A DNA stretch of 59,336 nt, the filler included, from Sluysia triapertura (Eukaryota), in assembly GCA_046118255.1 (NCBI GenBank). It is 4 parts of 4 records of this genome, joined end to end, with 100 filler letters (N's around TTAATTAATTAA, not from the genome) between each part and the next. Parts side by side here need not be neighbours in the genome. Positions count along the whole stretch, not along the records: positions 1 to 15,323 come from JBJNIA010231454.1; positions 15,424 to 35,002 come from JBJNIA010057655.1; 2 more parts are not named here. One strand, written 5' to 3'. Positions 6,151-53,900 of this stretch are shown in pieces. Every line of letters starts with the position of its first letter. Position 1 is the stretch's first letter. The notes below the pieces were generated by a model, which saw only the letters and a list, made by a program, of their open reading frames with translations, was not told the origin of the DNA and searched no databases. The position numbers and the translations under genes were made by a program.

Positions 6151-9100
6151 GATTTTATGAAATGAAAGTATCGAGAATTTAGCAAAATTTTGGGTGTTTA
6201 ATTATGTATTTTAAATGTCTGGAGGTTTATTAAATCGAATTGACAGTTTAATGAATATTTTGCGTGAATCCTATTATAAGGATCTTTTAAAAATTAGTTA
6301 CGTAGTTAAAAAATTTAACTAGAGCAATCTTTATCAAGTAAGAACTTTTTTATTTGAAGCTATTTAATTTAATAAAAATAACAATAAAAAGAAGCTATTA
6401 ATAAAAAGAACAATAATGATTTTTATTAAGCACAAAATAAATAGGATTTTACAACAAAATAATAATGACAATAAAATAGTTTACAAGGAATTATTCTGTA
6501 TAATTCCAATCAATAAAATTTTATTAAAGAATTTACAAAGATCTATTACAAGATCTAAAACACTTCATTAAAAGATTTTTAGTGTATTTTACACTGATAT
6601 TTAATGATATCTCTACTTAATGAACTAAACTAACGTATACAAAAAATTTTGATAGATTAATTCGTGAAATCTTTTCAAACCTTATCCTTCAAAAAACCAA
6701 TTTACCAAGAAAAATATGTAAATGAATATGTGATTTTTTATTGCTATTTATATACTTTCACGTATTAACCTTGAAAGTTAATTTTAAACAAAAATTATCA
6801 AATTAAAATTAATGAATAATTAAAACTAACAATAACTTTAGCGATAATTTCCAAAAATAACAATTTATAAATTTAAAATTTCAAAATTAATATCAACAAT
6901 TTATATTCAAAAATAAAGCACAAATAAAGTAATTTATAAATCAATAAATCAATATTATGTTATTAATAATTATTTCAATTCATTGCTTCAATTTATTGTT
7001 ATTTATAAATTATTACAAATATTCAAAAATTATAATGTAAATCTACATAATGTGAATAATTTAATGTAATTATTGTTTATTTAGGTGAAGTACATAATGC
7101 ATTCAAACAATTGTAATTTGATAATTTAAAAAAAGATTTTGAAGGTGAGTTCACCTAATAGATACGACTTAAATCTGAGCGAAGGCCTTATACTAGGATT
7201 TTATAAATTTTATTACTAAATAATTGCTTGTAATAGCTCAATGGCTTACGTTAAATTTGATGTCACTGATAAATCTTGACTTGTGAAGGCTTGATGCTTT
7301 AACAATTACGTTAAGTGAGCCTGTTACGGTCTGACAAATATGTCAATAATTTAACGAATTTAGTGCTCAGAAGATGAAATAAAAGAAAAAATATATTAAC
7401 ACATAAAAATTTAACTAATTCAATACACAAATTATGTAATAATAATCAGTTTAATGAGTACTTAAGGAACCTTGTCTCTTAGTACTTAGAAGTTAAAAAA
7501 GATATTAACCAAGCCTTTTACGGTGTTTTATTTTCTGTTTTCTTACAATCAGAAAAAAGAATTTATATCAAATAATCTTACTTATTCTTCTTTGATATCA
7601 TCATTGTTTTTGAATAATTTTTCTAGCTAATACTTGTTTTGTTATCCTCTTTGCTAAAAATTCTGTGGTGGCCAACTTTTTATTCAAAATTTAAATCAAT
7701 TCCACACATGAAAAATCTCAATTCATAACACTCCACAGTCAATTTTAATAAAGAATTTATATTAAACTACGATTACGATTGGCCACCCAATCACGGTTTC
7801 ATGAGCAAAAAAATTCGTTGATTGAGAATGCATAAGTTTGAACAAAAATAACCTTATTATTCAGAGTTAAATCACAATCAATTGAGTCAGTAATTATTAG
7901 TTTAAAAAAGGAGTTTTGGCTATAATATAAAATGAGTTTTAAAGAGCAAAAGTCGAAACTTCATAATTTTAAAAGATCCTTATCTTATTTAAAATTAAAT
8001 GCGTCAATAAAGTCTTCCGAATTCAAACAACCAATAATTGACGAAACAAAAGAATGTCGATAATCAATTTGAAAAATTCACATTGTATCTGTGTCAACAT
8101 ACAACCCAAATAATAGATTTGGATCACTATTTTTTGTTAAAAGCTAAATTTAATTCTAATTATCTGAGTACACTGTTATCAAAAATCAACGATAACAATG
8201 ATAAATGTTTGAAGCAAGTTCAAAATATTAGTAATTTAGTGGTTTTATGTTTTTAAGGTGTTTGTATTTATTTTTAATCTTATGATTTAGTAATATTATA
8301 TTTTTAAGTATTGCTATAAAAATTACGTTGAAGAGGTTTTAGTAATGAGCTTAGGATACCGCAAGTAACTTTAATTCTATACTTTAGGAGTAGGTTGATT
8401 AAGCCTCTAATAAAATCTATCGATTTGCTTTCTTTGTTTACCGAGTGTCGTGTAATCTGATTATGAACATCTCTTAATAAACTACAAGTCTTAACGTGTT
8501 TACACAAAAATTGAATTAAAATAACTTCAATAGTATTAAAAGGTTTATCTGCATTTAATCTTGTTATTTTTAATACACAAATGTTTATTACGACCTTATT
8601 CGATAACAATAAAAATCTTTTAATGTATAAATCTGGAGATTTAACAGGAAGACATGTTAGATTTAAATTAAAAGTTTTGTTTTCTTCTTCTTCTGTTTTT
8701 TTGTTGCACTCCACACTCTGTTGGGCTTCACGAATCCCTTTGATAATTCTATAAACTAAAATAAAGATTAATGAATGTATGAAACTAGGACTCACGTAAA
8801 TTGTTTTAATATTGGAAACGTTTTTAATGATGAACTCAGGATCTTCTTCGTTTATCAATTCACTTATTAACTACTTGTATTGATATTGTATCGTTAATTT
8901 CAGACCTTTAGTTAATTTTGCATATATAGCATAACATCCAATTTTGAAGTTGTCTAAGTAGAACTCGTCCCTTTATTGAATATGCACGTAATAATGTTTA
9001 AACATAGATTGGTCATCCTAATATCTGCTTGTGATAGACTTAAAATGGTACTGTTGACTATTAATTAGTAAGATTGGATTATGAAATTGTTCTTTTAACA

Positions 9101-9299
9101 CGTTCGAAACGATCAACTGATAAGTTACAACTTGAAACTTTCGGTAATTAGTCTGTAGGAATTTCAGGACATTAAAAACTTTATGTACAGATCTGTTTAT
9201 CATGATAAATTCATATCGGTATGTAATCATGTAAACGTAGTAATGGTGAATTGATTGAATAATATTATAACTACTAATGATTGACTGATATGGGTTTGG

Positions 9300-9800
9300 T
9301 AAAAAATTAAACGGTTTCTGGTAATAATGTGTAACATCATACTGATTCCTCTTTTTAGATCATAATTATCATCTATATCAGCAGTTTTATTTTGTATTAA
9401 AATCATCGTCTAGAAATCGTGAATAAGCTAATACATTACAGGAAAATGCTGATTCGATTAAAGACTTTATATTTCTACAAAATTGAGGTATCTCGTCATC
9501 TTTTACGTCTAATTCTACATAATTATCATTAATGATTATGCATTCTAATTTTTGTTTCAAATCTCGTGACACTAATCTAGGAGTGAAAATCATAGCGTTT
9601 GCATTTGGAGTTCGTCCTTCAAAAAATGTACTTTCGTCATAAAAATAATCAGATCGCGTTTTAGAAAAATTAAATTCGAATTGATGTAAATTCCAAAATC
9701 GACTACCAATAAAATTCGAATAGTTGCCTGACTGAATTGTTAACATCGATCTAGTGCTGTTTTTATTTGCTACGTAGAATTGTTTGCTTGAAATTTTCAC
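9300..9800 (-). pseudogene. Misato/MSTO1/DML1 (tubulin/FtsZ-like) fragment, disrupted
   Basis: MLTIQSGNYSNFIGSRFWNL and FEGRT...FTPRLVSRDLKQ match Misato segment II (TLQxGHYxNFVGxHWWN; FxEG...FTPRLxxxDLKG). Later RNIKSLIES...LDDDF resembles EDRxxFFVEECD...LxDGF. Stops follow. Confidence 0.75.
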
Positions 9801-9909
9801 AATTCGTTATAATTTTTAAGCACTACGAAAACAAATTTTAATTGTTTAACTTTCTTTATTATTTTAATTGTTACTATTATTACTATTTTTGCATGCTTGC
9901 TTATTGGTT

Positions 9910-9962
9910 ATCCAATCACGACTTCAAAAATAATTATTTGCATATAATAGTCGTGATTGGAT
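9910..9962. repeat. Perfect 14-bp inverted repeat containing CCAAT
   Basis: ATCCAATCACGACT (9910-9923) / AGTCGTGATTGGAT (9949-9962). Confidence 0.9.
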
Positions 9963-10005
9963 GATATGTGATATTGGAATATAAAATTAATTTTTTGATG
10001 ATTTA

Positions 10006-10064
10006 CCATCATCAATATTGACATGTTAATAAAATAGTGCATAGAGCGTCAATATTGATGATGG
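10006..10064. repeat. Perfect 17-bp inverted repeat
   Basis: CCATCATCAATATTGAC (10006-10022) / GTCAATATTGATGATGG (10048-10064). Confidence 0.9.
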
Positions 10065-13000
10065 CGACGACAACTAATAAATAGATAAAATTGTTAAAAA
10101 TTAAATTAATGACTGATTATAATAACGATAATAATAACAAAAATAATATTGCTATTATTATCATTATCATCTAACAAAATTAAATCACATAAATCCCTGT
10201 CTTGAAATTTACACGAGCTTTTCTTTGGAATACTTAATTTTCTACATATTAAAAAGAAGAATAAAACAAATGGCATGTTGTGAAGAAGAAACGGTAACGA
10301 GGTATACAACGCCTCAGTTATCGTTGTTGCTTCATTGTAAGACAATTAATTCTTTAAAATTATTTTAAATTTAATTTTGAAGATAAACAGAATGATTTGA
10401 GTTGTACGTGAAGTGACGAATGTTAGAATAAATTCATGAGATCTATTTAAAGTTTGTAGTTGAGAATAAGATTTATGCACTGAATATAATGGTTTGAGAG
10501 TCTTATTAAAAGGTTGTAGTTTATTAAATTTAAGAGACAATTACAAAATAAATCTTAGCGTATGTGTGATGTTGTTGAAAAATGTTGATAATGATTATGT
10601 GTAGATGAAATGAGTTTGAATTAGTATAATTGATTATAGGTTGTAACGAAAATGTTTTCTATGTTTCAGGTACTTATTAATGTTGAGTGGTGTTAATGTA
10701 TTTGTGATCTATATATTATGTGTTATGGTTGAGGTTTGGTTTGAGATAATGACTATTGAGTGAATGTTACGGATTATTCGGCACTAATTATCAAAGTATA
10801 GTATGAGGTGAATAATTGAGACTATTAGGTGAATTGTTGATATTTATGTTGTTGAAATATTAAAAATGTTGAATGTTGTTTGTGATGATTCAGTTAATGT
10901 AATTCGATAGTGTGAAATGTGGTTGCTTTAGATGTTATGTTTTTTTGTGAGCTAGTTGTTGTAATGTTTTAGTGACTTTTAAATTATGGGTGTTGGCCAC
11001 TACAAACGTGACAGTATAAGAAATTGAGGATGTCGTAATATTACAGTCATTCATAAATTTACATCAAACTCATCTACAAATATTCCACACACTCCATACA
11101 TTGTTATACAAGACTATAAGACCTAAATTAGAATTAATATATACATGTTGTGTCTTTCATACTTTTTATTTTACAAATTATCAATCAAAACTCAATAATT
11201 AAACAAATTCAGAATCTCGATATATTCTTTGAATAATCACAAAACTACAATTAAAAGATATAAATTATTCTTTATGACAACGACAATACAAAGTACCCTT
11301 TATAACAAAATACAAATTATTCTTTATAACAATATTGCAAATTACTCTCTATAAAAACGTAAATTACTCTTTAAAAAACAAATCACAACCAGGGGTGATA
11401 CAACTTAAATCTTTGTATTAATGCAAAATATACTCAATACAAAATAAATCACTAACCCTAGGTCCTCTAACTCTAAATATTTATATTGATCAATTGCTAG
11501 AGAATAAGCCCTGATATCAACGTTAACCACAGATATATCTAGGCAGCGTCCTTCAGCTAGAAAGTTTTGATATCTCAACTCTAATTCTTATCTCTATGGA
11601 TTTTACTTCTAACTTTATGCAAAAATGCAACTGCATATATAGCAGTTTTATGATGCTGTAGGAAATTAAAATCAAGAATTTAACAAGACGGAAATTAAAG
11701 CTGTCTATTCTCTTTTAGTCGGTAATAAGCCGAATTTCGGCAACAATTTCCATCATGTTCAAATTCAATCAAATTCAAATTTTACTTATCTAATGATAAT
11801 AGGATTAGTGGTCAACAATCCTCTTATCTTCTTAATATCACCTAATTAAAATTTAAAATCATTGTTACATTGCTATTATACCAATAACGTAATTTGTCAA
11901 CTTAATTTTAAAATAAAATTTATGAAATAATAAATCTATTTCTCACAGGAGTATTCTGCATTAATACGTTGTGCATCAACCGTACGTCGCACATCAAAGT
12001 GAATAACATATTTGAATTAGTATCTTTAAAAGCACTATTTGATATATACTTTATTAATACTTAGACATTAGAACATATTTAATCTTTAATTTCAAATTAC
12101 AAAAACTAATTAAAATAACTAATTTTTACGTTATCTACGTTGACGTGCTTCGCAATACTTCATTATTATTAAAACCAATACTTTATTATCAAAACCAATA
12201 ATAAAACTCAACATTAGACACTAAATTTAACATCATTATATCATGAGCAAACATTTTTCATTAAGTTATCAAATTAAATATATTTTAATTAAGTTAAGTA
12301 ACAAATGTACTTTAGTATTTTAACAAAGAAAGCCCTGTAAAATGTTATTTCTTCGTATTTCTCATCGTTTTATCTTGATTCAAGTATTTCACATACCTAT
12401 CTTATCATTACAATTCACCATAATCCCCTATCTCAATTCCTCAAAAACGTTCACCTTATTCTGTCATCCTGAGTCTTGAACCTTTATAACTACCCTTATC
12501 CTTCGCCAACCCAACAATATGTAAAAATAATTCACAATATTTAAATGTATGCAGACAATTATTTTAAAATTTAAAATTTAAAAATAAATATGTTATATGT
12601 TAATAAAATCAATAATTATGGCATTATTATTATATTATTGTAATAAATTATGTAAAAATAATTTAAAATATAATTAATTCTTTATAATATATTTCTTTAA
12701 ATTAATCAATTAATTAAATTAATTAATTATTATTTAAAATTAATTAATTATTCAAAATAGCTATAAAAAGCTATGATATTTTTACAAGTCCACACACTTG
12801 AAACAAAAATTTTTAAAGTATAATTTTCGAAGAATACTCCAGTTAATTGTTGGTTTCCTCACAAAATGATTTCATTACATTAATTGCTTACATTAGTCTT
12901 TCTGGATAAAATCATTTTTGGATCAATTTTGGATTAAACACGTCTTTTAGATTTATTCGTTAGTTCTATTATTTTAAAAGGTCTTTTTTAATTAATGTAA

Positions 13001-14619
13001 TATTTAATTAATATTTAATATTTATTTCAAGACATCAACCCTTTTTAATATAGGAGTTGTAAAATTCATAAATATAAAATAAATCCATTAAGATTATATA
13101 TCAATCTGAATAATCTTTATTGTACTATAATTGTTATAATTTTTTGTAATATACATTTATTTCAAATTTCTTGTTATCTATTATATAATATAAGATCCAC
13201 CGATTTTACTAGGTTGTAAAATATTCGAAAATTCAAGTTCATTTTTAAAGAGTTTAATAATAAGGTGCCGTTTTTTTAATACAGACGTAAAATACTACTT
13301 AAATTATCAATTTTGTTACAATTTCATAAACTTTATAATAGCGGTATTACCTAATAATAAATATAATTTGAAATAACATTTTATTGATTACCAGTATTAT
13401 TGATATAAAACACTCCGAAAAAATACCATTGATCTTGTCAACTGCTAAAGAAAGAGCTTCTGTAAATATTGTAAATAAAGTATTATAAATTTAAAATTTT
13501 TAAATTGTTTATTGTAAATAATGTTTTATAAATTTTAAAAAAGTATTTTTATTATGTACTTTTCATAAAAATTATAAAGTACTTTAAAGAATAAAATAAT
13601 AAATTGAATTCTAAATAACCGAATTATATTATATATTTCCAAATCAAAAAAGTTTTTATTAGTGATTTATGATAAATTTTCATATTAAAAATCTTTTATT
13701 GTTAATTAATGAGTTATGATGTTTGTATTTGATGAAGACAAAAATATATTAAAAGAGCGCGCGAAGAAAATAGAAGACAAAATAGTTTTAAAAAGATTTT
13801 GTACGTCAAGTTAAAGGAGACTTTCAAGAAAATACGTCTATGGTCAACGTCAAATTATCTAAAGGAGATTTGGAAAAACTATCCAGTGGTCAACGGAGAT
13901 TCAAATCAAGTGCTACAAAGATAATCCTAATATTAGTTGCAGTTATTTTCGTCAATGATCGATATCATTTCGTTATTTGGAGAAGATATATCATTATAAT
14001 TTATTATTTTCAATAAAGTAAAATACTAATTATTAAGTTTTCATCGCTCTAATATTTAGCGTTAATTATCGACTTAAAATCTTTAATAATTTTGAAATCC
14101 AAGTACTAAACCTGGATTAATATAATTTCAAAATATTCTTAAAATAACTAAAAAGAAGTTGTTTCTTTTATTTTGTGATTGTGTATTTTTATTATATTTG
14201 CTTTTACCATTATTAATTAATAATTTTGTATTTAATAAATTTTTGTACCTTTTTTGGGGATTTATGACATTTTTTAAAGTTATTCATGACATTATTCAAA
14301 ATCAGTTTATGTTTTTGAATTAAATTCATTATTATATTAATTCTTTTTAATATATTTTCATGTAAAAAGATATTAAAATAACATCTAACACATTTATTAA
14401 GGAAAACAATCATGAATTTAATACAAACTTGTTTAGAGACAATTTGGAAAACAATGAATGTTTATTAATACTTGAAAATGTTATAGTCCATGCTCTAAAT
14501 GGTTCTCTTAAAGAAAAATTAAAAATATAATTATGATAATCTAATAAAAATTGTAAAGTATAATAATTTACCTTAAAAAACTGTTTATCATTTACGTTAT
14601 ACATAGCATTATACATAGC

Positions 14620-14860
14620 GTAGTACACGAGTGAATGAATCATTTTGATATGCATGGCCACTGATCGAAGAACTTGCTAGAGCTTGATTAGTTTTCAAAG
14701 CAGTCAGTAAACTAATAATACGTTCAGCAGCATGATTAATTTTTTGACACCATAGAATGGTTATTGTAAATCGTTAACTCCATGTGCATATATACAATGT
14801 TCACCATTTCTAAAATATATGCGACGTGCTGCACATATATTGTCCAGTTGTTGGGATTGT
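14620..14860 (-). pseudogene. CCCH zinc-finger gene fragment
   Basis: ICAARRIYFRNGEHCIYAHGVNDLQ* resembles C-x8-C-x5-C-x3-H..GxxEL with the second Cys lost. A stop and frameshift follow. Confidence 0.5.
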
Positions 14861-15323
14861 CCAACTGTAGAACAGGAGATGATTAAGAAACATAAAGAAC
14901 TATAAAATCAAGGAATAACTGGTACAAATGATGGATTAGACATTAAAAATATTGTTGAAATAAGAAACATGAAAAAGAAAAAATTTATAATGATGCTAAA
15001 AGTTAAAGAATATCTTAAGGTTCAAAAGACCTTATAAGGGTTTGAGACCTTATGGAAGCTTGAGATTGACTTGGAGAACGTTTAGAAGTATTAAGGTATC
15101 TTTGAACTTTGGAATCTTTGGATTATTGAAGACTTTAGTGACTTTTAGTATTTTAGGAATATCGATAAGCATTTGAGATTCTTTAGAGAACCTTATAAAG
15201 TGTATAAAATCTTTAAAATGATTGAGAAATAAAATCTTTGTTCAAGATAATAAAGATAAGTTTAACATAGTAATAATTAACATGAAGAAGTAGAAAAAGG
15301 AATCAGAGAGGTGAAGGTGAAAA

Positions 15324-15423
15324 NNNNNNNNNNNNNNNNNNNNNNNNNNNNNNNNNNNNNNNNNNNNTTAATTAATTAANNNNNNNNNNNNNNNNNNNNN
15401 NNNNNNNNNNNNNNNNNNNNNNN
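15324..15423. other. Artificial scaffold linker (N44-TTAATTAATTAA-N44)
   Basis: Same 100-nt design three times in the window; TTAATTAATTAA gives stops in all six frames. Confidence 0.97.
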
Positions 15424-15699
15424 ATTTTTATATTGGAATTAAATTTGTTTTATTGGAACTAAAGTATGTTATATTTTTAATTTTTGTTAATTTTATATTA
15501 AATATTTTTAAATTTTGTTAATTTTATAATAACGTGACTACTTAAAAAATTATTTTTAAATTTTTAAAACATTATATAAGTCAGAGTAATTTAACATACA
15601 AGACAATTATTTTCACAATAATTTTTTCAAGCAACTGTGTAACTAAAAACCCGTGAAAATAATTGTACGAATAATTGAAAAAATTATTGTGAAAATGGC

Positions 15700-15880
15700 G
15701 ACAAAATTTTAAAATGCTAATTGTAATTTTTTCAAGTGGCGTTCTCATTAAACGTATGCTAGTTTATATACTGGTCATCAGCCAGTGGGAATCTATGAAA
15801 GCTCTAGAACATTCTAGAAGCTTCTATTCTGTTTTTAGATACACTGCCTCAATTTATTTGCGGAAAACTGAAGGGGTATC
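15700..15880 (-). repeat. Dispersed repeat shared with the Helitron-linked 5' region at 44690-44800 and 45410-45500
   Basis: TGGCG...CTAGTTTATATACTGGTCATCA...TTCTAGAAGCTT matches 44700-44790. Confidence 0.65.
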
Positions 15881-16344
15881 TAAAAAAAGGATTAGTGATT
15901 TACTTTTTTTGTTATTTTTTAATGTTAATACAGGCGTCAGCATTTATTGATTTTATTTAGCTAGTGATTTTTAATATTTAGAGATTTATAACTTTGAAGT
16001 TGATAATAAAAGACGTGTTGTTATTAAAAGAATAATTAGTTTTATTTATATAATATAGGTGTATAATTATGAAAGAATTTTCATTGTACAATTGTAATAT
16101 TTTAAATAATATATCGAGATTCCGAATTTGTTTCGTTATTGGATTTTTAATTTTTATGTGACATAGGTTTAACAGTTCAACTTTTAACATTTTAACATTT
16201 TATTTCATTATTGGGTAAGTTAAATCTAAAATTTATAAGTGAATTAAAGAAATCAATTGAGAAGTAAGGGTTTTATTAGTAAATACAATCATAAAATAAC
16301 TTTAAAATATTGTACGAATAGTTAACAGACTCGATATCTGATGA

Positions 16345-16500
16345 TAGGGATATTATAAAGAATGTCTTTCCGATTTTTATCGATATAAGATATCATAATT
16401 AGCGTAACTAAAAGCAGTTGTTTGGTAGTCAGTACCATATCTATAATAAATTGCTTGTCCAGATTGACTTACAATGAAAATATGTATTTCTTTGGCACAA
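16345..16500 (-). pseudogene. MON1 (first longin domain) fragment, frameshifted
   Basis: KEIHIFIVSQSGQAIYYRYGTD (cf. KHIFILSEAGKPIYSRYG), then after a frameshift LIMISYIDKNRKDILYNI (cf. ALVSFVE..D.IRSI). Confidence 0.65.
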
Positions 16501-18554
16501 AAAGGTAATCTAAATGTTCTGTCGGAGTAGCTCAATACAAGCATTCATTTTTATTGACTTAAAATTAGTTTCTAATCTTTGTTGTTCAATTGCACTTCAG
16601 TGGTGCTGTTGAGGTCAGAAATTCATTATTTGAAAAAGATACATTGAGACGTAACCTACGATTTTACCACGTGAAGATGGACACAGATTTGAATTGTACA
16701 TAGTTGACTTATTCAGATCACGCAATTTTGGAGCTTCAATCACTAACAAAAAACAAATTAATCGGCACATTATTGTAGCTCTGGAGCTTGAGAAAGTAAC
16801 TAATAAGATCAATTATCAGTTTATCACTTATTACTAAACGATTCACGATATTACTCATATTCTTTTGATCTTTTGATCTAATGCAATTGTGTTTAATTGA
16901 TTATTCACGAATATCTATTTTATTTTAGGGTTCAATAAGAATTCGTAATAATTGTAATGTTTCTAATGTATCAAAAATTATCAAATTAAAACTTTTATTA
17001 AATGGTTTATTTGTTTAATTCTTGTTCCACAATTTTTATTTTCTTTTATTGTTATATTCATTAATTGCATTTTAAAAATTATTTTCACTTAAACACATTT
17101 TATGCCTTAAAACATTTACTCTTTTTTGATTTCTGCTTTCATAGAAATAAGGACATTTCTTTGGGTCTGCTGTTAGATATGAAGAACGTTGCGGTAATTC
17201 TGCATTGATCATTCATTGATCGGAAAGTAAAATCTTCATTATGTGACAATATAATATAATATTCTTATGAAAATGGCATTAAATATGTTTTAAAGAAGTT
17301 GAAAACACACAATAACGAACACGATAAATAAAACGATTCATCGATATTACAAGTATTATACAACAGACTTTGAGTACGAAAATATATTTCTTATAAATCT
17401 TATTCTTTTATCTCGAGCTTAACAACTTGGATCAACGTTTCTTAATCGTTGCAGAACTTTCAAGAAAAAACGTAAGATAAGGGTCAAAATACACTCAAAA
17501 TCGAATGCTATAATTCCAGTCTTCAATTCGCTCTGATTTTCCTAATTTAAATTAGGATATAATCTTAGTTTTAAAATATTTATATTTTAATTATTTGAAT
17601 TTGTATGGCATGTTTTTATATTACGTTTTATGTACATTAATTTTTTACTGTGAATATCCAGATAAGTACTTTAGTATTAAATTTTTAATTACGATACTTC
17701 TTGTAGTGTCCTGCCTACCTCAACTCTTAACACACACAACATTAACATCCATTGCACTCTACATTAATATATTATAACTTAAATAAATGATAATCTCTTA
17801 ATTCACATAACATTATATAATAAATTATACTAATCAGTCACACTCAATTCGTCTATATTGTCCCATACAAATATATTATTTTAGTATAATTTTTATATTC
17901 TTTTCTTTTGTTTATACTTCCTTTTAGTATTCGTTTATTGTCTTTAAATATATTTTCATTTTAAAGCAAGATCATTTATCACGAAATAAAAGATATTAAA
18001 ACAGAAGACATATTATACACTAGATTATTAAATTATAATATAATTTAATTTATTACTTTAGTTAAATTATGATAATATAAAAATATTAAAGTTTATTTTT
18101 TATTTGTTAATGTTCAATGATTTTTATTCGTAAAATTTTACAGTAAAACTCAAATTATATCGAATGTTTTTTTTTAATTATTATTATTATTATTATCAAA
18201 ATTGCTGTATGATTTATAATTATTAATCATCGTAATATTATAATCAAATGAAAATTATTTAAGTGACTTTTTCTGATTATTGTTATCTGTTTCAATTTTA
18301 GAAATTTAAATGTTACTAACTGTTAATCAATGTATCTCTCTCTGCTAGAGATATTCGAGTAATATTCGTTTTATAATTTACTTTTAATTATTTCTGATTG
18401 TTTATCTAAAGACTTTTATTTTGATATTGTTGGTACTTTTTTTGTTTTAATATTCGAATTTTTAAAAGAAAGCAAGAGAAACGTTACTGCCATAAAAATT
18501 AAATGCAATTTATTTCCAAATCAGAAAAAGTTTAAATTTTATTGAACAAAAAAC

Positions 18555-19067
18555 ATGAGCGGTTTAAAAGAATTGAAATCAAAACTTATACAAACGAAAG
18601 AAGAGATCTATCATGTAAAATCCGAAGTTGATTGTAAAAATTCTGCCATTATTCTAGAACAGGAGCGAAAAGCTGAAATTTCAATTGAGATGAATGCTAT
18701 AAATAAACATAAAGACGAATTGGAAGCTTTAATTCATGAGTATCATGTAAAATTGAATCTTAGTACAATTGAATTAGATGAGACAATATTAATCAATAAT
18801 TCCTTGGAAATCGCCAGAATAGAAGTTGAGCAGACTCAGGCTGATCGAATTACGAAGTCAGAACATGATGATGTTAAAAGTATGATGATAAGTGCAGAAA
18901 CACCGATATTGTTTGTAAAAGCAGCCGAATTATTTATAAGCGAAATAACACTACGTACTTGGATTCATACAGAACGTAATAAACGACGTATTTTACAACG
19001 TAGTGATATTACAGTGCCACTCCGTGATGGTAAGGCAATTCATGTTATTTATCTTTTATCAATTTAG
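18555..19067 (+). CDS. Chimeric 170-aa ORF: tropomyosin-like coiled coil (aa 1-~103) fused in frame to a partial NF-YC histone fold (aa ~105-159); function uncertain
   Basis: The N-terminal part aligns by eye to short-tropomyosin N-termini (heptads, EQERK..EMNAIN). DDVKSMMISAETPILFVKAAELFISEITLRTWIHTERNKRRILQRSDI matches NF-YC [51 protein letters not shown] donor at 19030, AG at 19066-19067. Confidence 0.7.
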   Translation: MSGLKELKSKLIQTKEEIYHVKSEVDCKNSAIILEQERKAEISIEMNAINKHKDELEALIHEYHVKLNLSTIELDETILINNSLEIARIEVEQTQADRITKSEHDDVKSMMISAETPILFVKAAELFISEITLRTWIHTERNKRRILQRSDITVPLRDGKAIHVIYLLSI

Positions 19068-19469
19068 GTGTTAGTTTTATTTCAAAACTCACCCCAAATC
19101 CAGAAGAAGATGATGTTGACATACAGAAATCATTACTTGAACTAGGCAGATCGAAACATGGAGCTACAGTGCGAGAGGACGTGTTGCGTGCAGACCACAA
19201 CAATGTTTTAACCGAACTTTTAGAGTATTTGCATATTATTCGTTTTTTTATTACTATTTTATATGTAAAAAAAGATTTCAAAATTATTATCCTTATATTT
19301 GAAAAAGCTATAAATGCCAAAGCAATATGTTATGCAGGATTACGTAGTTGTTTGAATTTATGTGAATCATTCGATGTAGGCCAAGATGTTTGTGGAATAT
19401 TAATCGATGAATATAAGTATGATAATTATATACATAAAACAGTTATAATCGATATTTTATCAAAACGTT

Positions 19470-19860
19470 ATTTTAAAAAAGGTCATAGCTTGCCTAAATT
19501 AACTGATTTTCAAATCGATTCTAAAGATCGCAATAAAGTCTTAGAATACGATAGTTTAAACGTAAAGGCCTTTTTCACCATTAAAGAGTGCAGCAAAGGC
19601 CTTGAGTTAGATTCAAAAAATGCAACTCTATTTTGTAATTGTGCTATGCCTTATATTAAATTAAATGATTTTCAAATTGATTTTAAAGAGTGCAATGAAG
19701 TTGTACAACGTAATAGTATAGACGCTAAGGCATTTTTTAGACAAGACCTACGTAAGGAAGGTCTTTCAATACTTGATAGAGCTATTGATGATTTCAAAAT
19801 TGTATTGAGGCTAGAACCCGAAGATAAAACTGCGAGGTTGATGCTTGAGCAACTAAGTCC
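19470..19860 (+). pseudogene. TPR co-chaperone-type (RPAP3/SPAG1-like) fragment with an internal duplication
   Basis: SKGLELDSKNATLFCNCAMPYIKL..ECNEVVQ..AKAFFR..AIDDFKIVLRLEPEDKTA. KLTDFQIDSKD..VKAFF repeats KLNDFQIDFKE..AKAFF. The rest of ORF 19169-20326 is intron-like or LINE read-through. Confidence 0.75.
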
Positions 19861-20139
19861 GCGAGGTGTCGTTGATTCAATATTCGATAATAATTCGTTA
19901 GACTATTCACTTTTATTATTTATCTTTAACTATTTCAAATTTGTTCATTTTTCTGAATTAATAACAATTAATAAACTATTAATGTACCCTATACTACATG
20001 ATGTTGTATTTATAACCTTTTACATTCATGCTAGATTTTTAATTGAATATATCGATTTTAGTTATTATTCAAAATTCATTTTGTTCAGTAAAAGTAATTT
20101 TAATAATAATGATTCCTCAAAAGACCTTAAGTCTTATTT

Positions 20140-20620
20140 TTCATTAGAAATAGTTATCAATCAAAAAATTAAATTAATTTTCGCCCTGATCTGGCCATTT
20201 CAAGCCAAACTTATTTTTCACTCATTGATAACTAGCAACATAGTTTTTAACAATGGTTTGTTGTGCTCAATTTCAGACAGGAAAGTGAAAAAATTACAAC
20301 TAGTAATTAATCAAGCAGCAAACTAATTCTCCAAGTTGGAATAAGATCTCATGTAACACCTTATCTCAAAGAATTACATTGGTTGTCAATAAAAGCAAGA
20401 ATAGAATTTAAAATGGTGGTGGCCCAGCCTACATCTACCTAAAGATCACATCAATCATAACATTCTTCGACACAAATCTCATTGCAAAAAATTACATTAA
20501 AACAAATATCACTTGTATCATTCACAACATTAGAACACTCATCCTTATAAAATCGCATATGCCTAACAAAATCCTTTTGCTAACATTTTTAGATCAAAAT
20601 AAAACACAGCGCATTATCGT
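20140..20620 (+). mobile_element. L2/CR1-group LINE ORF2 C-terminal remnant
   Basis: FHSLITSNIVFNNGLL...KKLQLVINQAA / LILQVGIRSHVTPYLKELHWLSIKARIEFK matches the post-RT LQxVQNxAARL...HITPxLxxLHWLPxxxRIxFK motif. Confidence 0.85.
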
Positions 20621-23600
20621 CTTGCCATCATTACGAACATATATGTAGTATCAATGTATACTAACGCGAATATTATCCATTTGTGATTACATTAATAAAG
20701 TTCAATAATTTTGTAATTTATCGAGTTGACATTTAATTTAAACTCAATCACTAATTCTGAAAATAATTCAAAACTTACCAGCACAACTTGTTCAACGAAA
20801 AGTAGTGCATCATCCGACCCTACACATTTTGTTTCCACGTATTGTAATCTCGATGAATTAGACAAGGGATTTAATAGTACAAGAAATCAAAGACAAAATA
20901 AACTTTCTATGTTACCAAGAAAGTATTTAAATCAGAGAAAGAGTACTTTGGCCAATATGTTCTTAAATAATATTATTAAACCAGATACAGAGCAAACTGC
21001 GGATAGTTTTGATTCTTTAAACACATCTGATCAAATGAAAACCGTTCGAATTTCTACGAAGATTGAACAATTGAACATTGTTGTTGGTGAAGAAGAAAAA
21101 CATTTATAAATTATATCGAGGAAAGACATCGAAACACATGAGAGAATTCTACACAGAATTTCGAAGCTTTAATCGACAACAAAGTGTAGCAGAAATCATC
21201 AATGCAATTAAAGTAATTCAATGTTTTTGAACTATATTTAACAAATCAGATGAAGATGGGTACTGCAAGTGAACAAGTTTTTACTGTAAAAATAATATCG
21301 TATTTAAAAAATCAAGTTAAATTATTTTTCGAGTTATTATTGAGTTTGTCTGATTGATGATGTTTATGTTTCAACCTTATTAGCATAAAATAATGTTTGA
21401 TAATATTTTATCAACTAAATGGTATCATTTTGGACATCATTTTTATATGTAATGTTTTTTATATTTTAGTTTTCGTATGTTTCACTATTAAATTATAATT
21501 TTACGGACTGTTTCTTGATGCAAAAATATTTATCATTATTGTGATAAAATGTCAATTACTATTATTATCACTTTTAAATCACATCTTAACTTTATAATTT
21601 GGGTTAATACGCCATCTTTATAAAATTTCATATCGTTTACCAGTTTTTTATATTCAATGTTTAAAAGCATCCAAAAGTTTTCAAAATTACAATTAACAAA
21701 TAAATAAAGATTACACGGAGATTTATTTAGAACAATTTTAATAATGATCAATTTATTCTCATACATGTCATTTAAATTTTTTGATGTTTCACCATCTAAA
21801 TAAAAATTGCAGATTGTAGCATTAGTTATAAAAATAAAATTTGATTACTTTATGTTCATCGTAAACAGCACGAATATAGATTGTTGTTTTGATTTCGTTA
21901 TTTAATTCTGATACCCCATTTCCATTTGTCTCGATCGACAGTAAAATAGCTCGACTTAGTGACACACATAACTGTAATAACTTTTCTACACTTTCTGGTT
22001 TTTGCAACGCCATATTCTTTGATGTCGAATTCGAAAAATCCTCTTGGTTTTCAAGGCTGGCTTCTTAGATTATACATAAGAATCGTTATTACATGGATTC
22101 TCGCTTGACTTTATATCACTTAGAAATTGTACGATCAAACTCACAACCTTAAAACTTAAAATGAAATTCCTTTAGATGAACTTAATGAATAATAATACTT
22201 TAAAAGGTTTTAAATGTAAGTTTTGAATGCTGTTTACTAGTTTTACGTGAATTTTTTAATATTATTTAATGTTTCTTGCTAAAGATATATTGGAGTGTAG
22301 AAGGTTGTGACTTAAGTACTTTGGAATAGTATAAATGTTAAAAAAGAGTGACGCATGTACATTGTTGTTCTGAAAGAATTTATTTATAAAAGATCGTGAA
22401 TTTAGATTGTTTGGAATGATTTGAAGGTGTATGGTAATTAATTTCGAATGTGATTGTGATTGGATTGTGCTGACATGGCGAATAAAATATTTTTGATGAA
22501 TTTCTTAATATAGTTTGATGGTTTTAAATGTAATTGTGATTTGTATGTTATGAGATTGTGGATTTACATTGACTCAGGGGATGAATTGTAAATAAACGAC
22601 CTTCAATATCTTACAGTGATTAGCCATTTTTATGCAGTTGGTTGTAGATTGTTAATTATTATTGTGCATTTTGCATAAATTGTTGCCTTAAAATTACTCA
22701 TTTTGATTTACGTATTTCTTATTTCACGAGATATTCACGAGATGTTCCTTCTTGCACGGCAACATAGGAATTAAACAAAATTTATTCAAAATGCAAAATT
22801 ATTAAAAGTATAGATCTATTAAATATTTTGCCAAACTTCAATTGTAGTAAAAAAATTTAATTTTTCACTTTAGTTTCACTATAATGGACATAAATTTAAA
22901 AAATCGAAATAACTTTTTTAATTAAAGTTTTGCATTATTTCATTTTGTCGATCTCTCTTAACAGAATAATACTATATAGATTTTAAATTTCAAGGTTAAA
23001 TTTAATCTCAGCATTATGTAATTATGTTAGATGTTCTTGTTTATTTATGCTTGAGCGTATATTCGGATGTGAAATTCACATTTGCAAATATTTTGTAATT
23101 TATTAAAAACTCAAACAGTGCTCGGATCAACAAGACACCGAGCAGAAGCAATTTTACTATCAATAATGTCAAATCGCTCGAAGTCTCCTTTGTATAATTA
23201 CCTTAAGAGATTGTATTTGCGTAATTAAATTATTTCCAATATTAATAACGATAGTATTATTTAAAAGATTTAAACAATACATAACAATATTCAATAAATG
23301 AAATTATGGTAGTACTATTAAATAATTCGTATATCATAGTGTACAAAAATTTCGTTAATAATAAATTCAGTATAATTCATCGTTAATAAATAAATGCTAG
23401 TATGGTAGTAATTTTCGTTAATTATAAATTCAGTACAGTGCTAGTATATAGTAATAATTCATATATGTATGTATAATATATACAAAAAAATTCATTATTT
23501 ATAGTGTAATATTATTAATAATAATAATAATAATAACAATATTAGTAACAATAATAATAATAAATGATATTCGTTACCTTTTATGTTTTATTAAATTTCA

Positions 23601-24059
23601 ATATTAAGGTTAATTTAATTTTTTATTACTTAATAATAATTTTAATTATTTTATTTTTTAATCTAAAATTTTGAATTTATATTAACTATTAAATCTCATT
23701 TTAAATTGATGAAAGGCACTATAATGAAAATGATTTTAATTTTACTTATAAATATGAAATTTACAATCTTATAAATATTATGTTACATGTATGATAAATT
23801 TTGAAGCATGCAATACACATAACGTAACACCACAATTTTCACAGTGGTTTCTTTTCTCACTCTTGCATTTTTATGGAAACACAAACGATACAGTTTAGCT
23901 TTATTTTCTTATAGTAAACAAATAAATGATATTACCAACAATAACAATAACTGACGTAAAAAAGGCATATGAATAAATAAATGTTCCGACAAAAATTCTA
24001 ACCGGAGTATATATAAAAAGTAGACATAACATGAGAAACACGCAGATGTGTCGTGATAA

Positions 24060-24146
24060 TTATTGCTGATCAACAAGGGAAGCCGGTGAACCTAACGGCG
24101 TATTCAATGTAGTTGAAAAACGACTAGTCAATACAAAAGCATTACG
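24060..24146 (-). CDS. HID1: Candidate terminal exon of HID1 (RNAFVLTSRFSTTLNTPLGSPASLVDQQ*)
   Basis: Phase 0, compatible with the upstream exon. The AG at 24147-24148 ends a ~90-nt AG-free pyrimidine-rich tract containing CTGAC. No homology to the canonical HID1 C-terminus. Confidence 0.35.
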   Translation of the reverse strand, partial: RNAFVLTSRFSTTLNTPLGSPASLVDQQ

Positions 24147-24530
24147 CTAGCCCGTGAACAGTCGTGGAAGAGGTTAAAGACATAATTGGTCAGATGAGTG
24201 AGAAATATAAATAAAGAGGAATTTAATTATTATTAATCTTAATTTTAAGAAAATATTTAAAAATGTAATGTATGTGTAAGTTAAACCAAATTTCATTTTC
24301 CAGAAATTTCTAAGACTGTTTTTCTATTTCAGAAACTAATGTTTAGCAACCCAGAAATCCGCACTTGAAACCCAAAGATTATTTTTCTTTAAGAGTTTAT
24401 TCCAATGGACAGTAGTATTCAAATATTTAAGAGCTAAATTTTCAAGAATTGAAACAGCAGTTTTACGAGTTTAACGAAATAGAAAATTTGAGTTAAATAT
24501 AAAATTATAACACAAAAGATAAATAAATAC

Positions 24531-24979
24531 CTCCGTATTCACACTGCGTTGACTAGATGGAATACTTGTTGTGTGAGACGAATTATGATTATTTGATGTT
24601 TGTTGTGATGTTGTTTGTGTACTTGGTGGTATTGAATGATGACTGCTTATTCCTATTGGAGCTGGGGAATTTAAAGTCATTATAGTCATCCGAGCAAGAC
24701 GTCTGGACTTTTTACTAAGTGCATGTGCAATACTACCTGGATCAGTTGCCAATCCACTAAGATTATGAAATATTTGACGCTTACGAATCATACAATAGAC
24801 GAGATTACTGTTACCATCAAATTGGTACTGAATAATATTATTTAGTGTTTCCAATAGAAAAAATATTGAATGATGATTGGAGGGACTGGAAAATAAAAAC
24901 CATGGTGTACTAAATGCTTCAACAAGATGAATCAATTTCGTTGATGTTGAAGTTGCCAATGATTTTAAATATGGTGAAA
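24531..24979 (-). CDS. HID1: HID1 exon
   Basis: SPYLKSLA..KLIHLVEAFSTPWFLFS..FFLLETLNNIIQYQFDGNSNLVY.MIRKRQIFH; TTTCAG acceptor, GTATTT donor; phase 1 start matches the previous exon. Confidence 0.93.
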
Positions 24980-26897: not shown

Positions 26898-27002
26898 TAT
26901 TATTATTTCATCTATTAAAATAAAATGAAGCAATAATTTAGACATCTAAAAGAAAACTTATTTACAATGTCGATAAACATAATAAAGAAATAACAAACAA
27001 AC

Positions 27003-39006: not shown

Positions 39007-39398
39007 TTGCTGTTAGCTTTAAGTTATCAAAAATGTTCCACAAACAAAGCAGTGTCCAATTTTAAATAAAAGTAATAACATAAAAGATAATTATAAAACA
39101 ACGATGAACAAGCTAGATTCGTTCATTTCAAATAACCTTTTATTTTGCACATTATTTGTAAATCAATTTTTAATAAAATAAGTTTTTTCTGAAAGAATTA
39201 TTTTGAACCATCAATTATAATTTAAAGAAATCAAATATTTATATAATAATAATTATTATTATAATTAAATTTCCTATTTTATTCGTTATTTTACGGCAAT
39301 GTAGAAAGTTAACATTATGTAGAAATATATATATGAAGTACTAAAATTAGTAATCTTACCACAATTTTTCATCACAAAAACATTGTACCACAATTATT

Positions 39399-47690: not shown

Positions 47691-49243
47691 ATAAATAAAT
47701 AATTCATTCAATTTGTAAATAATTTCGTTTAATAAATTTTAGTCTTTTATCATTCATTGTGGTTGCCCACATTACCTAGATCTAACACATTTTACTTCTT
47801 AATTATACAGCATCAGCAGATTTTCCTGGAAATTATCATTCTGCAGATTGTACCCTGCTGCCAACTTTTATTTAAAAATAATTGTTACTAACTTGAATAT
47901 TCATTACGAAAATCATTAATTCATAATATCACTTCATTTGACACTTCATTTGTGAATTAATACCCTGCAACTATAATGTTGAATTACGTACTGACCGGAT
48001 TCATAAAATAAAGCATGTGAAATGCAGTCTAAAAAGAGTATTATCAAACAGATTCCAATCAGAATTGTAATTTATAAATATTTTATAAATTCCATTGATT
48101 TTGTATTTAAATTGTAATTAAATGTGACTAATTTTTGTTTACATCATTACTAACCAATCATATATCTTAACATTACTTTATAAACTAAATGGTGTAGTGG
48201 CCAACACTCATAATTTGAAATTCATTAAAGCATTATAACATCTAAATGAATCACATTTCACACTATCGAATTACTTCAACTGAATCATCACAAACAACAT
48301 TCAACATTTATAATATTTCAATAACACACATATCAACAAGTCGTCTAACACTGCAAATCATTCACCTTACTTCATACCTCGAATTAATGCCGAATAATCC
48401 ATAATATTCACCCAAAAGTCATTCTATCAAACCAAACCACAACCATAATACATAATATATAAATCACAAATACATCAACACCATTCAACAACATTAACAA
48501 GTACCTCAAGCATAGAAAACATTTACGTTACAACCTCGAATCAATTACACTAATTCAAACTCATTTCATCTACACATAATCATTATCAACATTTTTCAAC
48601 AACATCACAAATACGCTAAGATTTATTTTGTAATTGTCTTTTAATTAAACAAAATCCAACCTTTCATTAAGCATTTCAAACCATTATATTCAATGCATAA
48701 ATCTTGTTTTCAATTATAAACCTTCAATAAATCTCAATAAATTATTCTAACATTCTTCTTTTCAAACACAACTCAAATCAGTCCTTTTATCTTCATAAAT
48801 AAACATAATAAGGCTTTAAAGAATTCATTATCTTACTATGAAGCAGCGACGACAACTGAAGTAGTGTATACCACATTTCCATCACTCCTTCATGTAACAA
48901 CAATCGTTTTCACTTTTCATTTCACTTTATACATGTAAGAAGTATTAGATTTCTAAAGAAAAGTTCGTGTAATTGTTATTAAGGACAAGATTTATGCGTT
49001 TTATTTCCAATAACAATAATAATAATAACAGTGTTGTTATTATTATTGTTATTATTATTATTGTTATTATTATTATTATCAATTCATTAAAATATTGAAA
49101 TTTTCATCTAATGAAAATCAACCTGGTTGCTACCATCACCAGTGTTGACATTATATGTCACATATTCCATTATCGTGCCACCACTGATGGTCAATCATCA
49201 GTTTTCTCGTCGTTAATTCCATATAATTGAATCCTATACACCA

Positions 49244-49293
49244 CCCAATCAGAGTACATATTACTGAAAATACTTACTAATACTCTGATTGGG
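49244..49293. repeat. Perfect 13-bp inverted repeat containing CCAAT
   Basis: CCCAATCAGAGTA / TACTCTGATTGGG. Confidence 0.9.
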
Positions 49294-49512
49294 CAAGTCA
49301 AAAATAGATTGGTAGTAATAATGGTAGCAAATAAAAATTCTCAATAACAATACAAAAACTGGAGTAATTACAAAGACAATAATTTCAAGAGAGACAAAAG
49401 AAAGAAAAATTATTATTATCACGATTATTATAATAGTATATGTTCACAATCTAAGCTGTTAAAAAACATTGACGAGTCAGCAAATAATACTACGAAAAAT
49501 AACTGAAATACC

Positions 49513-50979
49513 ATGGAGTTTAAAAGATTTTCTGAAACACAAGACAAATATGAAGTGATCCGAAAAAGGACACTTACAAGATTGATTAATCCTATTTTTT
49601 TAGAATCGAACGATTATTCATATTTTAATCATGTACAAAGTTGGAATCTACCTGAGTCACATTTTAAATTATCTAAAGCATTATCCAGCTATCTTGATGA
49701 TAATATCACAATTTGCGAAATTCGAACTCTAAAGATAAATGTCGTTATTTTCATTCTTAGATCAGAATTACGAGAAATGAAAGTAAAATTAGCATGTACA
49801 TTCGATGAAGATAGTTATATAGAATTTAATGCAACAAATGACGAAGTACCTCAATTTTGTAGAAATATAAAGTTTTCAAATGAATCAGTATTTTACAATA
49901 ATGTTCTAGTTTACTTAAGATGTCTAGACGACGGTTTTAATCGAAATGAAACAGCTGATATAGATAGCGATTATGATAAAGAAAACCGGGATCAGCATGA
50001 ATTTAGATATTATTATGAGAGTCTGTCTAATCTTTTACTAGACGTATACCAATCAATTACTAGTACTTATACTATGACCCAATCACTTCATCCGGATTAC
50101 TCATACAGGGTTACAAGTCGAATCGAATATATCATGACACACAAATCAGTATATAAAGTTTTTAATGCTCTGAAATTCCTAGAGAACGATTATCGAAAGT
50201 CTCAAATTCTAACTCATCAATTGATAGTTGCAATTTTATATTCCAATCTTACGAATGAATAGTCAATTCCAGCACAACACTATAATTTTGGCTCCATTAC
50301 AAGCAGATATTAAGATGTTGAGAGACAGGACCAATCCATGTTCAAGCATGATGACGCGTACATTCAACAAAGAAGTCAATTCTACTCATTTAGTCAATCC
50401 CAACAATGGATGTTATATTATATATTTAAATTTAATTAATGGTCTGAAACCAACGATGCAACATCACCACTTTAGCAAATTACTACAATACAAGTCATTA
50501 ATAAAGAAGATCTCGAGTTTTTTATTAAAAACTTTTCCAATGTTAAAACAATTTGCGTGAGTTCTAGTTTTATACATTCATTAACTTTTATTTTAGTTCA
50601 TATAATTATCAAACTGGTCTGTGAAGCCCAACAGAGTGCGGCGTATAACAAAAAACAAGAAGAAGGAGATAAAAAAGACAAAACTTTAAATATAAATTCA
50701 ATATATTTAATTATCAAATATAGGTCAATTAATGTGTTGCTATTAAATTTTCTGATCCATATTTTAAAAAGATTTTTAATCTCACCTAGTAAGACTGCGA
50801 CGATCGCATGTGTATTGACATTGACGGGGGTTAACCTTGGTAAATCTTTTGTTGCCATTGAAGTTAAGTTTATTCAACTCGTGTTCAAACACATTAAGAT
50901 CTGTAGCTCGTCAGTACATGCCAAACTTAAGATTATGCGATACTCGGAAAACAAAAAAAACATATATAGATTTTATTAG
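49513..50979 (+). pseudogene. Diverged Misato-like ORF series (249, 110 and 140 aa, frameshifted)
   Basis: Paralogous to 8304-9800: ESNDYSYFNHVQSWNL, VPQFCRNIKFSNES..LDDGFN, HKSVYKVFNALKFL, SFIHSLTFILV. Confidence 0.65.
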
Positions 50980-53900
50980 AAGTTTGTGCGATCTGCACCT
51001 AAAGTCCAACATTTATGTTCTTTACTAAACTCTCTACGTAATTTTAAAATAAAGAATACCATGCTAATGGTGATACATAAAAATTTAATAGCGTCGCGAA
51101 ATTTAAAAATTAAAAATTTATTGAAACCTTCAAAAAATAAAAAACAACCAAATTGGTGCCAGGAGCATTACTCCCTAAATATGGATTAAATTAACTTTTC
51201 TTATCAATCAAATAGCAGTAACATTAATAATTTCCAATAAATAATAATAATAATATTAAAATATTACTTTATACAATTATTATATCATTGTAATTGTTTA
51301 TATTTGTGTTCAAATGTAATTATTTGAATTTTAAATGTCAAATGATAAATAATTTAGTGTGACTCATATTTATATTGATTATAAAAGAATTATTGAAAAC
51401 ATCGAATGATAATAGGAGAATGTAAAGATGGAAAAACTACGAAATTGAAACAGACAATAATATTTAATGAAATTTGTCAATTATTGAATATTTCAATTAT
51501 AATTTATAATTTTCGTAAACAATTTGTTAGCAGAAATGAATTCAAAATGAATGAACTTATTATTTATGCTAATAAAGAATTAAAACTTTATAATGAATGA
51601 ACAAATCAAATGATAATAAAAAAAAACGAAACAGCAAAACTATTTTAATTATTGTCAATGTTGAATAATGATTAAATCGAATAAAGGAAAGACCGAATGA
51701 ACGAATGGAATATTGATTAAAAAATTAATACGGAAGAAAATATTAATTATGTTGTTAAAAGAAAATATCAAACATTAGAAAACGAACTACACATACATTG
51801 ATATCTAATAATAGAAAAGTGAGAAAGAAACAATAATTTTCAAATAAAAAGTAAATCGTATATAATACCTAATTTAGTAACAAATGAATTCAAAAACAAC
51901 GACGCCTATGATATGATCATATAAAATTAATATTATTATCATTATGTATTGTGATTACTATTATTATCAATAATGCATAAACACTCCAAAAATGTAAAAA
52001 TTATGTTACTATAGTAACTCACACCTTTATATGATTGGTTATTATATTTATAAGACAAAATTGTACTATTAAATAATGGTAATAATAATAATATTTATAA
52101 TAAATAATAATATTTATTATTATTATTATTATTATTACTATACTTTTCAGATTATATAGTTTTATAATAATAATAATTATTATTATTATTACAATTATTA
52201 AAACCAGACGGTTTCATTAACCTTTTCAATCCTACTGGAATATATGTCCCAATAAATTTCAAATAAACATAGAAACAAAGAAACAAAAGTTATTTAATTT
52301 ATACTGTCCCGCGACATTTCCGTAGTTATAGTACTGAGGTATGTTCTTGATAACGTTGCAGGTCTGTACATGCTGGTAATATTTCATGTATGTGTGTGTA
52401 TATTAGTCTGCTTATTATACTAAACATTAGATGCAAAAATTGTTTAGAAGAAATAGTATTGAAAGGGTAAATCTATGAAATATTGACTATTTTTTCAAAC
52501 ATTGAAAAAAAATAATACATGACATATTGATAATAATACATATTTTATTGATAAATTGTACAAGAACACGATTCAGTAAAAAATATTAAAAAATATTCAT
52601 TTTATTTCTATTTTGATTTACTGAATTAAATTTTAAAATGTTATCCAGCTTTCCAATTTACGCTTTTTTTCAGCATTTTACGACGATATCACTTCAGAGT
52701 GTAGATAATATTTTTAAATACTTTTTTCTTTTAAAACAAAGTTATTATTTGTTTGATAATAATAATGATAAAATAATGATAATGATAATAATAAAGATAA
52801 TAAAAATAATAATAATAATGATGACAATTACAATTATAATTAATAATAATAATATATTAATTTATATTGCGTTAATATCTATTCTAAAATAAATCATCTA
52901 TTATACTATTTCTGATATAGAAAAATCTTTGCTTTTTTCTTAAATATTTCGTAATAACACAATACTTTAACATCTCCAGTATTTGATTGTAAATTTTTGA
53001 AACAAAAGATCTATCTTACACTGTTATAATTAATTTAAAGTTTATTATTTTAGTTTTTAAATAATTTTCTTCTTTGTAAACGTTAATGAAGAATCTTTTG
53101 AAAATAAAAAATCATAATTAAAAGAGGATATAAAAATAGTTTCTCATTGGTTTATTCGTTTATTGGTAAATTTTAAGATTATCTTACAAAATTAATAATG
53201 TATTCTATTATTAGTTCTTTTAATTCGTAGGAAATTTCTCCGTCCTCAATGTTTCATGCTAATCAAAGAAAAAGACGTTTAATTAAAATATTTTCTTAGA
53301 ATACCTTTTGGACAAAATAAATGTAAAAATTAAAAAACAGTTTTACCTTTAAGTAATAATCCATATTCAATCGAAATACTAATATAATTCTCCAATTAAA
53401 ATTGAAATTAAAACTATTGATAGAATAGAGTAACCAATTGAATTCTATAACAAGTTTTCTATTATTCGAAATAACAATTATTCGCAACGAAGGTGCAGAA
53501 CTATTTTGATTGGATATTTCTAAATTTATTGATTTTAATCCATTTTTGGATCACTGTTTCAAATTTTTTTTCTTTTAATAACTACAACTTCTAAATAAGG
53601 TATAGCCATTAAAATAAGGAGATTATATCACGTGCTCCATGAAAATATTAAGAATTCTGGCTATTTTGTTTTAAATCATTGTAAACTTCAGATTGAACAT
53701 GTTAAGCGGAACTTTGTTCTTTGTATTTGTGGCTGGTAATGTGTTAATATTGATCTCTTATTCTTGATTAGTAATGTTTGAGTAGCCATGTACAAAAAAT
53801 GTTTTCGAATGACATTTTTAATTTCAAATTCGAATTAAATAGATCAATTTAATTAATAAAATTTTCAAAAATTTAACTACTTATAAATAATCAGTAGAAC

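Follow-up and report, generated by a model that had tools for sequence, protein, structure and literature searches.

Scraps of unrelated genes joined in one spliced reading frame in a high-copy family of Sluysia triapertura

Can a row of short pieces from unrelated genes be more than debris? Gene-fragment capture is known, and captured scraps usually decay. The question is raised by a locus at 14620..22070 of a stretch of DNA from the flatworm Sluysia triapertura (assembly GCA_046118255.1; 59,336 nucleotides, filler included), and the whole stretch analysed is called the window here. A preliminary description had presented this locus as a serial collection of fragments from unrelated genes; that claim is supported, and contigs of a public sequencing run (X1) bridge several of the junctions. 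At its core, unrelated gene pieces and part of a long interspersed nuclear element (LINE) are joined sense-wise in one frame of 577 codons. This spliced frame in a high-copy family was absent from the preliminary description, as was a piece of the IFT81 CH domain. We put the chance at about even that the core belongs to an abundant family of chimeric transcription units, selfish or passenger, in which the open frame protects the RNA.

The window has a GC content of ~25% and consists of four contigs joined by three identical linkers (N44, 12 nt, N44) at 15324, 35003 and 47520; a search for this linker turned up only a different one. X1 is the one public run found to contain the sequence (0.63 of the window's words) and may be the assembly's own source; no RNA data set was among the listed matches, which carries no information on expression; its coverage of intergenic sequence suggests that X1 is DNA. 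Its contigs were aligned to the window at 80% likeness, and the X1 variants reported here are the best supported (12 of 134 indels, 15 of 64 joints, 40 of 864 substitutions and 8 of 11,029 pieces). Single-copy contigs in X1 have a depth of 11.8–23.

One frame through unrelated pieces

The frame opens at ATG 18555 on the plus strand and, with a 38-nt GT-AG intron removed, runs for 577 codons to its sole stop at 20324–20326. Its pieces lie in the following order.

18555..18791, plus strand: ATG and charged coil-like piece, in fewer family members (bin depth 1,498 in X1 versus 7,300–22,800 downstream)
18792..19029, plus strand: NF-YC piece covering the N-terminus and histone fold, whose first helix is lost to an in-frame deletion of 14 codons
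19030..19067, plus strand: GT-AG intron of 38 nt, phase 1; excision joins two open reading frames (ORFs) in frame
19068..19477, plus strand: coding-like pieces X and Y around a stop-free in-frame spacer; no donor match
19478..19885, plus strand: TPR piece of RPAP3/SPAG1 type (E 8.5e-17), of which 162 nt are duplicated internally and in frame
19886..20203, plus strand: AT-rich tail, 21% GC, 106 codons without a stop by frame analysis
20195..20421, plus strand: L2/CR1-type ORF2 piece near the C-terminus (E 5e-11, profile from loci bearing reverse transcriptase)

The frames of the NF-YC, TPR and LINE pieces are known independently, and all three agree in the core. These three identities had been proposed before and each is borne out. 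The NF-YC piece, of planarian type, matches PDB at E 3e-17 and residues 13–105 of Schmidtea NF-YC at E 8e-32, and among its closest relatives is one grouping with Schmidtea NF-YC. Together with the Na+/H+ exchanger at 2721–4832, these relatives indicate a flatworm, probably close to planarians. Similarity to NF-YC is clear as far as the intron donor, whose GT lies within a glycine codon, and a weak extension into the intron matches at 3 of 12 residues. The piece differs from NF-YC record P0134 at 10 of 48 residues, and it lacks a 15-residue insert of the planarian NF-YC record P0133 that looks like a read-through intron.

The intron at 19030–19067 had also been recognised correctly. A second proposed intron, at ~19224–19308, does not hold up: removal of its 83 nt (19225–19307) shifts the frame, and it is retained in an X1 contig that skips the first intron. 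The spacer between X and Y is an 81-nt stretch (19226–19306) of 14% GC, retained and in frame. Neither X nor Y has a match among 1.84 billion representatives or in PDB. The coil-like piece had been called tropomyosin-like; PDB matches to E 10 include no tropomyosin and Pfam gives no match, and these searches yield no donor. A heptad test of the tropomyosin identity gave P 0.14, and the last ~25 residues concerned are NF-YC.

The AT-rich tail has no stop in 106 codons versus 10–18 in the other five frames (shuffle P 1.5e-4), and none of 52,334 overlapping local non-coding windows is as open. The tail may be of non-coding origin or a coding piece of another donor, and an in-frame join is needed either way. 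The L2/CR1 piece then stays in frame with the chimera until the stop. Its match ends ~90 residues short of the end of the reference ORF2, and the piece is an internal fragment. X1 contigs have loose ends at 20203 and 20414, with 120 contigs departing at the latter. No true LINE 3' tail was found at the end of the core, similarity downstream at 20415–20720 not being significant, and no relative of the piece was found in viral contigs. A second fragment of the same LINE region lies at 40026–40166 and is 80% alike to 20223–20364. Single-sequence AlphaFold prediction of 19070–20323 gave a pLDDT of 33.

Abundance, variants and the reality of the joins

Single X1 contigs of the core have depths of 430, 1067 and 1087, and the listed contigs of the family differ from the window by 12–18%. 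Summed depth is 7,300–22,800 over 18720–20044 and drops over 20575–22164 from 2,262 to about 110–250. While depth summed over contigs is not a copy number, read roughly it indicates that the family probably has a few hundred copies. The steps in depth roughly fit pieces joined onto subsets of these copies.

Length variants within exons mostly keep the frame: among the seven listed with known net length, +6, +3, -1/+1, -165, +162 and +144 do so and +1 does not, and three of five joints with unknown filler are multiples of three. Three listed 1-nt indels are located inside the intron. In a neutral simulation of the core frame, 4 stops are expected at 5% divergence and 8 at 10%. The window departs from nearly every family contig at nine sites of the core; seven of these differences are non-synonymous, which is thin evidence.

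The intron is kept in the window and in the contig of depth 1087. One contig (depth 91.5, 1 difference in 248 nt) skips exactly 19030–19067 and retains the 81-nt spacer, as the 577-codon frame requires; with a short side of 27 nt, below the 31-nt rule, it is suggestive of an intron-less family form in X1. If X1 is DNA, this contig implies transcription, splicing and reverse copying. The earlier view that copying took place at the DNA level is thus too simple, as the absence of the P0133 insert from the NF-YC piece also indicates. Evidence on the template is mixed, the abundant variants carrying the intron on one side and the intron-less form and missing insert standing on the other.

Could the joins be artefacts of collapsed repeats? 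The contigs are short, the family is high in copy number, X1 may be the source run, and no single listed piece crosses the stretch from end to end; none of the listed contigs bridges coil/NF-YC, TPR/tail or tail/L2. However, diverged contigs bridge the NF-YC/intron and spacer/Y junctions and 20517–20847, and random misjoins would not yield one frame. To the left, 16280–17540 is a single-copy minus-strand patchwork broken by stops (IFT81 and, weakly, MON1). Because an X1 contig of 1627 nt (depth 15.8, 1 difference) spans 16104–17730 and with it this whole module, the joins there are real in X1 and single copy. A second family, described next, is present on two contigs. Misassembly is barely credible on this evidence. 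Collapsed segmental duplication of neighbouring donors is likewise unlikely, given in-frame pieces of 100–400 bp.

Open frames and drifting protein in a second family

The window holds two copies of another family (family B), 27% apart.

8233..11004, minus strand: family B copy 1, containing part of the Misato N-terminus (PF10644, E 1.4e-14)
48193..51154, plus strand: family B copy 2, with a sharp 5' edge, TGTAGTGG, shared with copy 1

The first ~560 nt are 78–96% alike and the coding part 60–86%, and this uneven likeness suggests that copies may have recombined. Across 343 aligned codons, differences number 92, 98 and 89 at first, second and third codon positions. In-frame stops are absent from both copies versus 14 expected (0 of 3000 permutations had none), and the other two frames have 11–29 stops per segment; the segments were picked as open in copy 2, which makes copy 1 the independent half. 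Amino-acid identity is 0.501 versus a null of 0.497, with no excess of conservative changes. Selection in family B removes stops, not amino-acid changes, which suggests that translatability rather than the protein is what is selected. By extension from family B, the core may be under the same stop-only selection. A by-eye idea that family B and the core flanks are decayed L2 ORF2, which would supply a LINE 3' tail, was rejected: none of 25 translated segments scored above all of its 100 shuffles against any of three LINE proteins (best z 3.4).

A fast-evolving host protein family, grown by birth-and-death expansion under diversifying selection with exon shuffling and ordinary duplication, is unlikely, though by no means negligible. 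It would explain a frame intact from ATG to stop, exact splicing and frame-keeping variants. The TPR duplicate has a non-synonymous to synonymous rate ratio (dN/dS) of 0.45–0.79, on 28 codons only, and PMC8277862 offers a precedent in Ssk-FB4, a young protein family amplified by a transposable element. Set against this are a histone fold without its first helix, AT-rich spacer and LINE sequence translated as protein, and a family B with no excess of identity or of conservative change. Additionally, no homologue was found in protein collections, searched at near lengths (229–732 and 93–298 residues) and, for X–Y, among the 1.84 billion representatives.

Host sequence in many degenerate copies, together with the lack of constraint on the protein of family B, could also mark a source of piRNA or siRNA (PIWI-interacting or small interfering RNA) that regulates the donor genes. 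But the pieces of the core lie in sense orientation within the spliced frame, the differences from NF-YC are already 10 in 48 residues, and such a source alone does not explain the avoidance of stops. We consider it very unlikely.

For the preferred reading, a family of chimeric units kept open by protection of their RNA, we propose the following course. Pieces would be added stepwise from DNA or RNA templates, in sense orientation. Stop-bearing RNA is subject to the nonsense-mediated decay pathway, and joins would survive it only where the spliced RNA can still be translated almost to its end. Surviving RNAs or loci would be re-copied by enzymes acting in trans, and would spread as a non-autonomous element whose protein is junk. 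After insertion the copies would decay, like the minus-strand module.

Several points weigh against such a course. No element ends, target-site duplication (TSD) or enzyme was found, and mobility is read from abundance. Intron 1 persists in the most abundant variants, where repeated rounds of RNA copying would be expected to eliminate it. Avoidance of decay enters as our proposal, and neutral-looking averages can conceal mixed positive and purifying selection. Two of the five joints with unknown filler are not multiples of three, one abundant variant shifts the frame of the tail (20119), and length variants in the TPR region are not independent of the internal duplication. Both family B copies carry a few frameshifting indels, as expected if copies decay after insertion. 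The evidence from X1 comes from one run, possibly the assembly's source, with a summed depth that is no copy number, tallies that rest on its best-supported 12 of 134 indels and 15 of 64 joints, and an intron-skipping contig whose 27-nt short side falls below the 31-nt rule.

More tentatively, and with a modest chance of being right, these units may form a class of selfish elements, non-autonomous and lacking known termini. Its members would pose as spliced mRNAs, gather up bits of housekeeping genes and of LINEs, and be selected solely for end-to-end translatability; several families would reach hundreds of copies, with neutral evolution of the amino acids in their long frames. With unrelated scraps kept in one long frame in many copies, selection for translatability could be told apart from selection for the protein, and the family would provide hundreds of natural replicates. 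This bears on the origin of chimeric and de novo genes and on how RNA surveillance may filter mobile DNA. If the selfish-element reading is true, long neutral frames would be a standing supply of proto-genes. Genome annotation would record such units as spurious paralogues of NF-YC or TPR genes, by the hundreds.

Vehicle, known systems and neighbouring sequence

Helitrons or Pack-MULEs had been suggested as the vehicle, and the tests for their ends do not bear this out. With 1155 CTRR sites folded, no Helitron 3' hairpin with CTRR was found, although the element's true ends are not fixed and old ends may have eroded; the best hairpin before a CTRR in 15424–24400 reaches -4.1 kcal/mol and is AT-only. 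The sole sharp edge seen, that of family B, is TGTAGTGG, not the 5' TC of a Helitron, and no RepHel match to Pfam was found among the window ORFs scanned. There are 106 inverted pairs in 15424–24400, and the 25 longest include no credible terminal inverted repeats (TIRs) bounding the core; self-BLAST of the window gave none around family B. By eye, no TSD is evident in the printed flanks, the 3' ends being ill-defined. As for a pair of long terminal repeats (LTRs), a high-copy repeat at 17702 has no partner and the start of family B is not repeated at its 3' end. The mosaic is real and has more structure than the preliminary description gave it, and on present tests it does not seem to belong to a known element family.

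Cargo of a Helitron or Pack-TIR, with ends eroded or beyond the stretch compared and the open frame a secondary filter, would fit the intron in abundant variants, the co-oriented pieces and the stepwise depth. Several pieces are 5' gene ends, like the bat Helitron captures of PMC4224331, where captures of promoter and first exon attain higher copy number and intact ORFs are a minority (4 of 36 TFPT copies). The missing TIRs, the AT-only hairpin and the edge of family B speak against this explanation, and we judge it quite unlikely.

Helitrons of maize and bat Helibat families (PMC4224331, PMC6431247) hold several host fragments per element, captured one after another, with nested retrogenes and a 5' gene bias, and number from tens to thousands, all as here; what differs is that no Helitron termini were found and that joins between several donors hold one frame. 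DNA-level capture with introns, multiple copies and possible expression are shared with Pack-MULEs and with Pack-TIRs of animals, among them Drosophila Ssk-FB4, but no TIRs or TSD were found here, and Ssk-FB4 holds one nearly whole gene (PMC8277862). LTR-mediated chimeric retrocopies (PMC5131818) likewise combine partial pieces of multiple parental genes through further copying rounds; here there is no flanking LTR pair and the abundant variants carry an intron. The planarian giant Gypsy element Burro (PMC6431247) is also a many-copy repeat with host-like domains in one long frame, but has LTRs, Gag and Pol, none of which was found here.

Primate mosaic segmental duplications have high-copy core duplicons with flanks falling in copy number. 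The core resembles them in this, but its pieces measure 100–400 bp, not kilobases, and family B shows neutrality at the protein level. The literature covered yielded no account of a flatworm family of this kind, most subscription papers being outside that coverage.

The remaining features of the locus are these.

14758..14814, minus strand: CCCH zinc-finger piece, broken (PF25427, E 4.4e-5); different contig, outside the locus
15324..15423, no strand: artificial contig linker (N44, 12 nt, N44), identical to the two others in the window
15540..16334, no strand: high-copy repeats, summed depth 7,400–41,000
16407..16484, minus strand: MON1-like first longin piece, broken, single copy (PF19036, E 0.0085)
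16892..17014, minus strand: IFT81 N-terminal CH-domain piece, broken, single copy (PF18383, E 5e-6)
17150..17530, no strand: block without an open frame, single copy, 5–9 stops in each frame
17702..17930, plus strand: high-copy repeat opening TGTAGTG, summed depth 55,000 plus loose ends
20717..21270, plus strand: coding-like block with a 130-codon ORF, moderately repeated (bin depth 230–2,262); no donor match
21825..22064, minus strand: 80-codon ORF, low copy (bin depth 113–252); no donor match

The CCCH domain had been identified correctly, but its place beside the mosaic is an artificial adjacency because the linker separates them. The MON1 piece is a weak assignment; its PDB search gave only two matches, both MON1A (E 0.4). 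Pieces had been said to lie on both strands, which holds for the whole region and not within modules: those of the minus-strand module and those of the plus-strand core are each co-oriented. The block at 17150–17530 had been called coding-like, which its stops contradict, and one minus frame searched against PDB gave no match. For this block and those at 19070–19430, 20730–21270 and 21850–22065, the frames searched yielded no donor. Exact look-ups of window ORFs gave no match, and Rfam gave 0 matches.

The repeats at 15540..16334 include a perfect 22-nt inverted pair (15609–15630/15675–15696). The repeat at 17702 has no second copy on its contig. C/A-rich stretches opening TGTAGTG occur at 17702, 29746 and 48193 (plus) and at 11004 and 55458 (minus); the motif count (6) is near chance, and the stretches are alike only at z 3–4, with ~44 nt in common between 29746 and 55458. 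An abundant repeat at 22165–22694 (summed depth 3,000–11,000) is weakly like 44876–44967 and 48451–48514. ORFs of 100–200 codons cluster on both strands at 39354–43030, with no Pfam matches, and possibly form a third mosaic; within this region 41461–42500 is, by eye alone, GAF/phosphodiesterase-like. An innexin is weakly matched at 54921–55091 (minus strand, E 0.017). The mosaic lies downstream of a multi-exon gene of the HID1/Dymeclin family (24474–29548, minus strand; Atlas feature score 0.95). An intronless Na+/H+ exchanger of 704 codons occupies 2721–4832 on the minus strand, with its best match in Schmidtea mediterranea (50% identity, 648 bits) and a best Schistosoma match of 467 bits.

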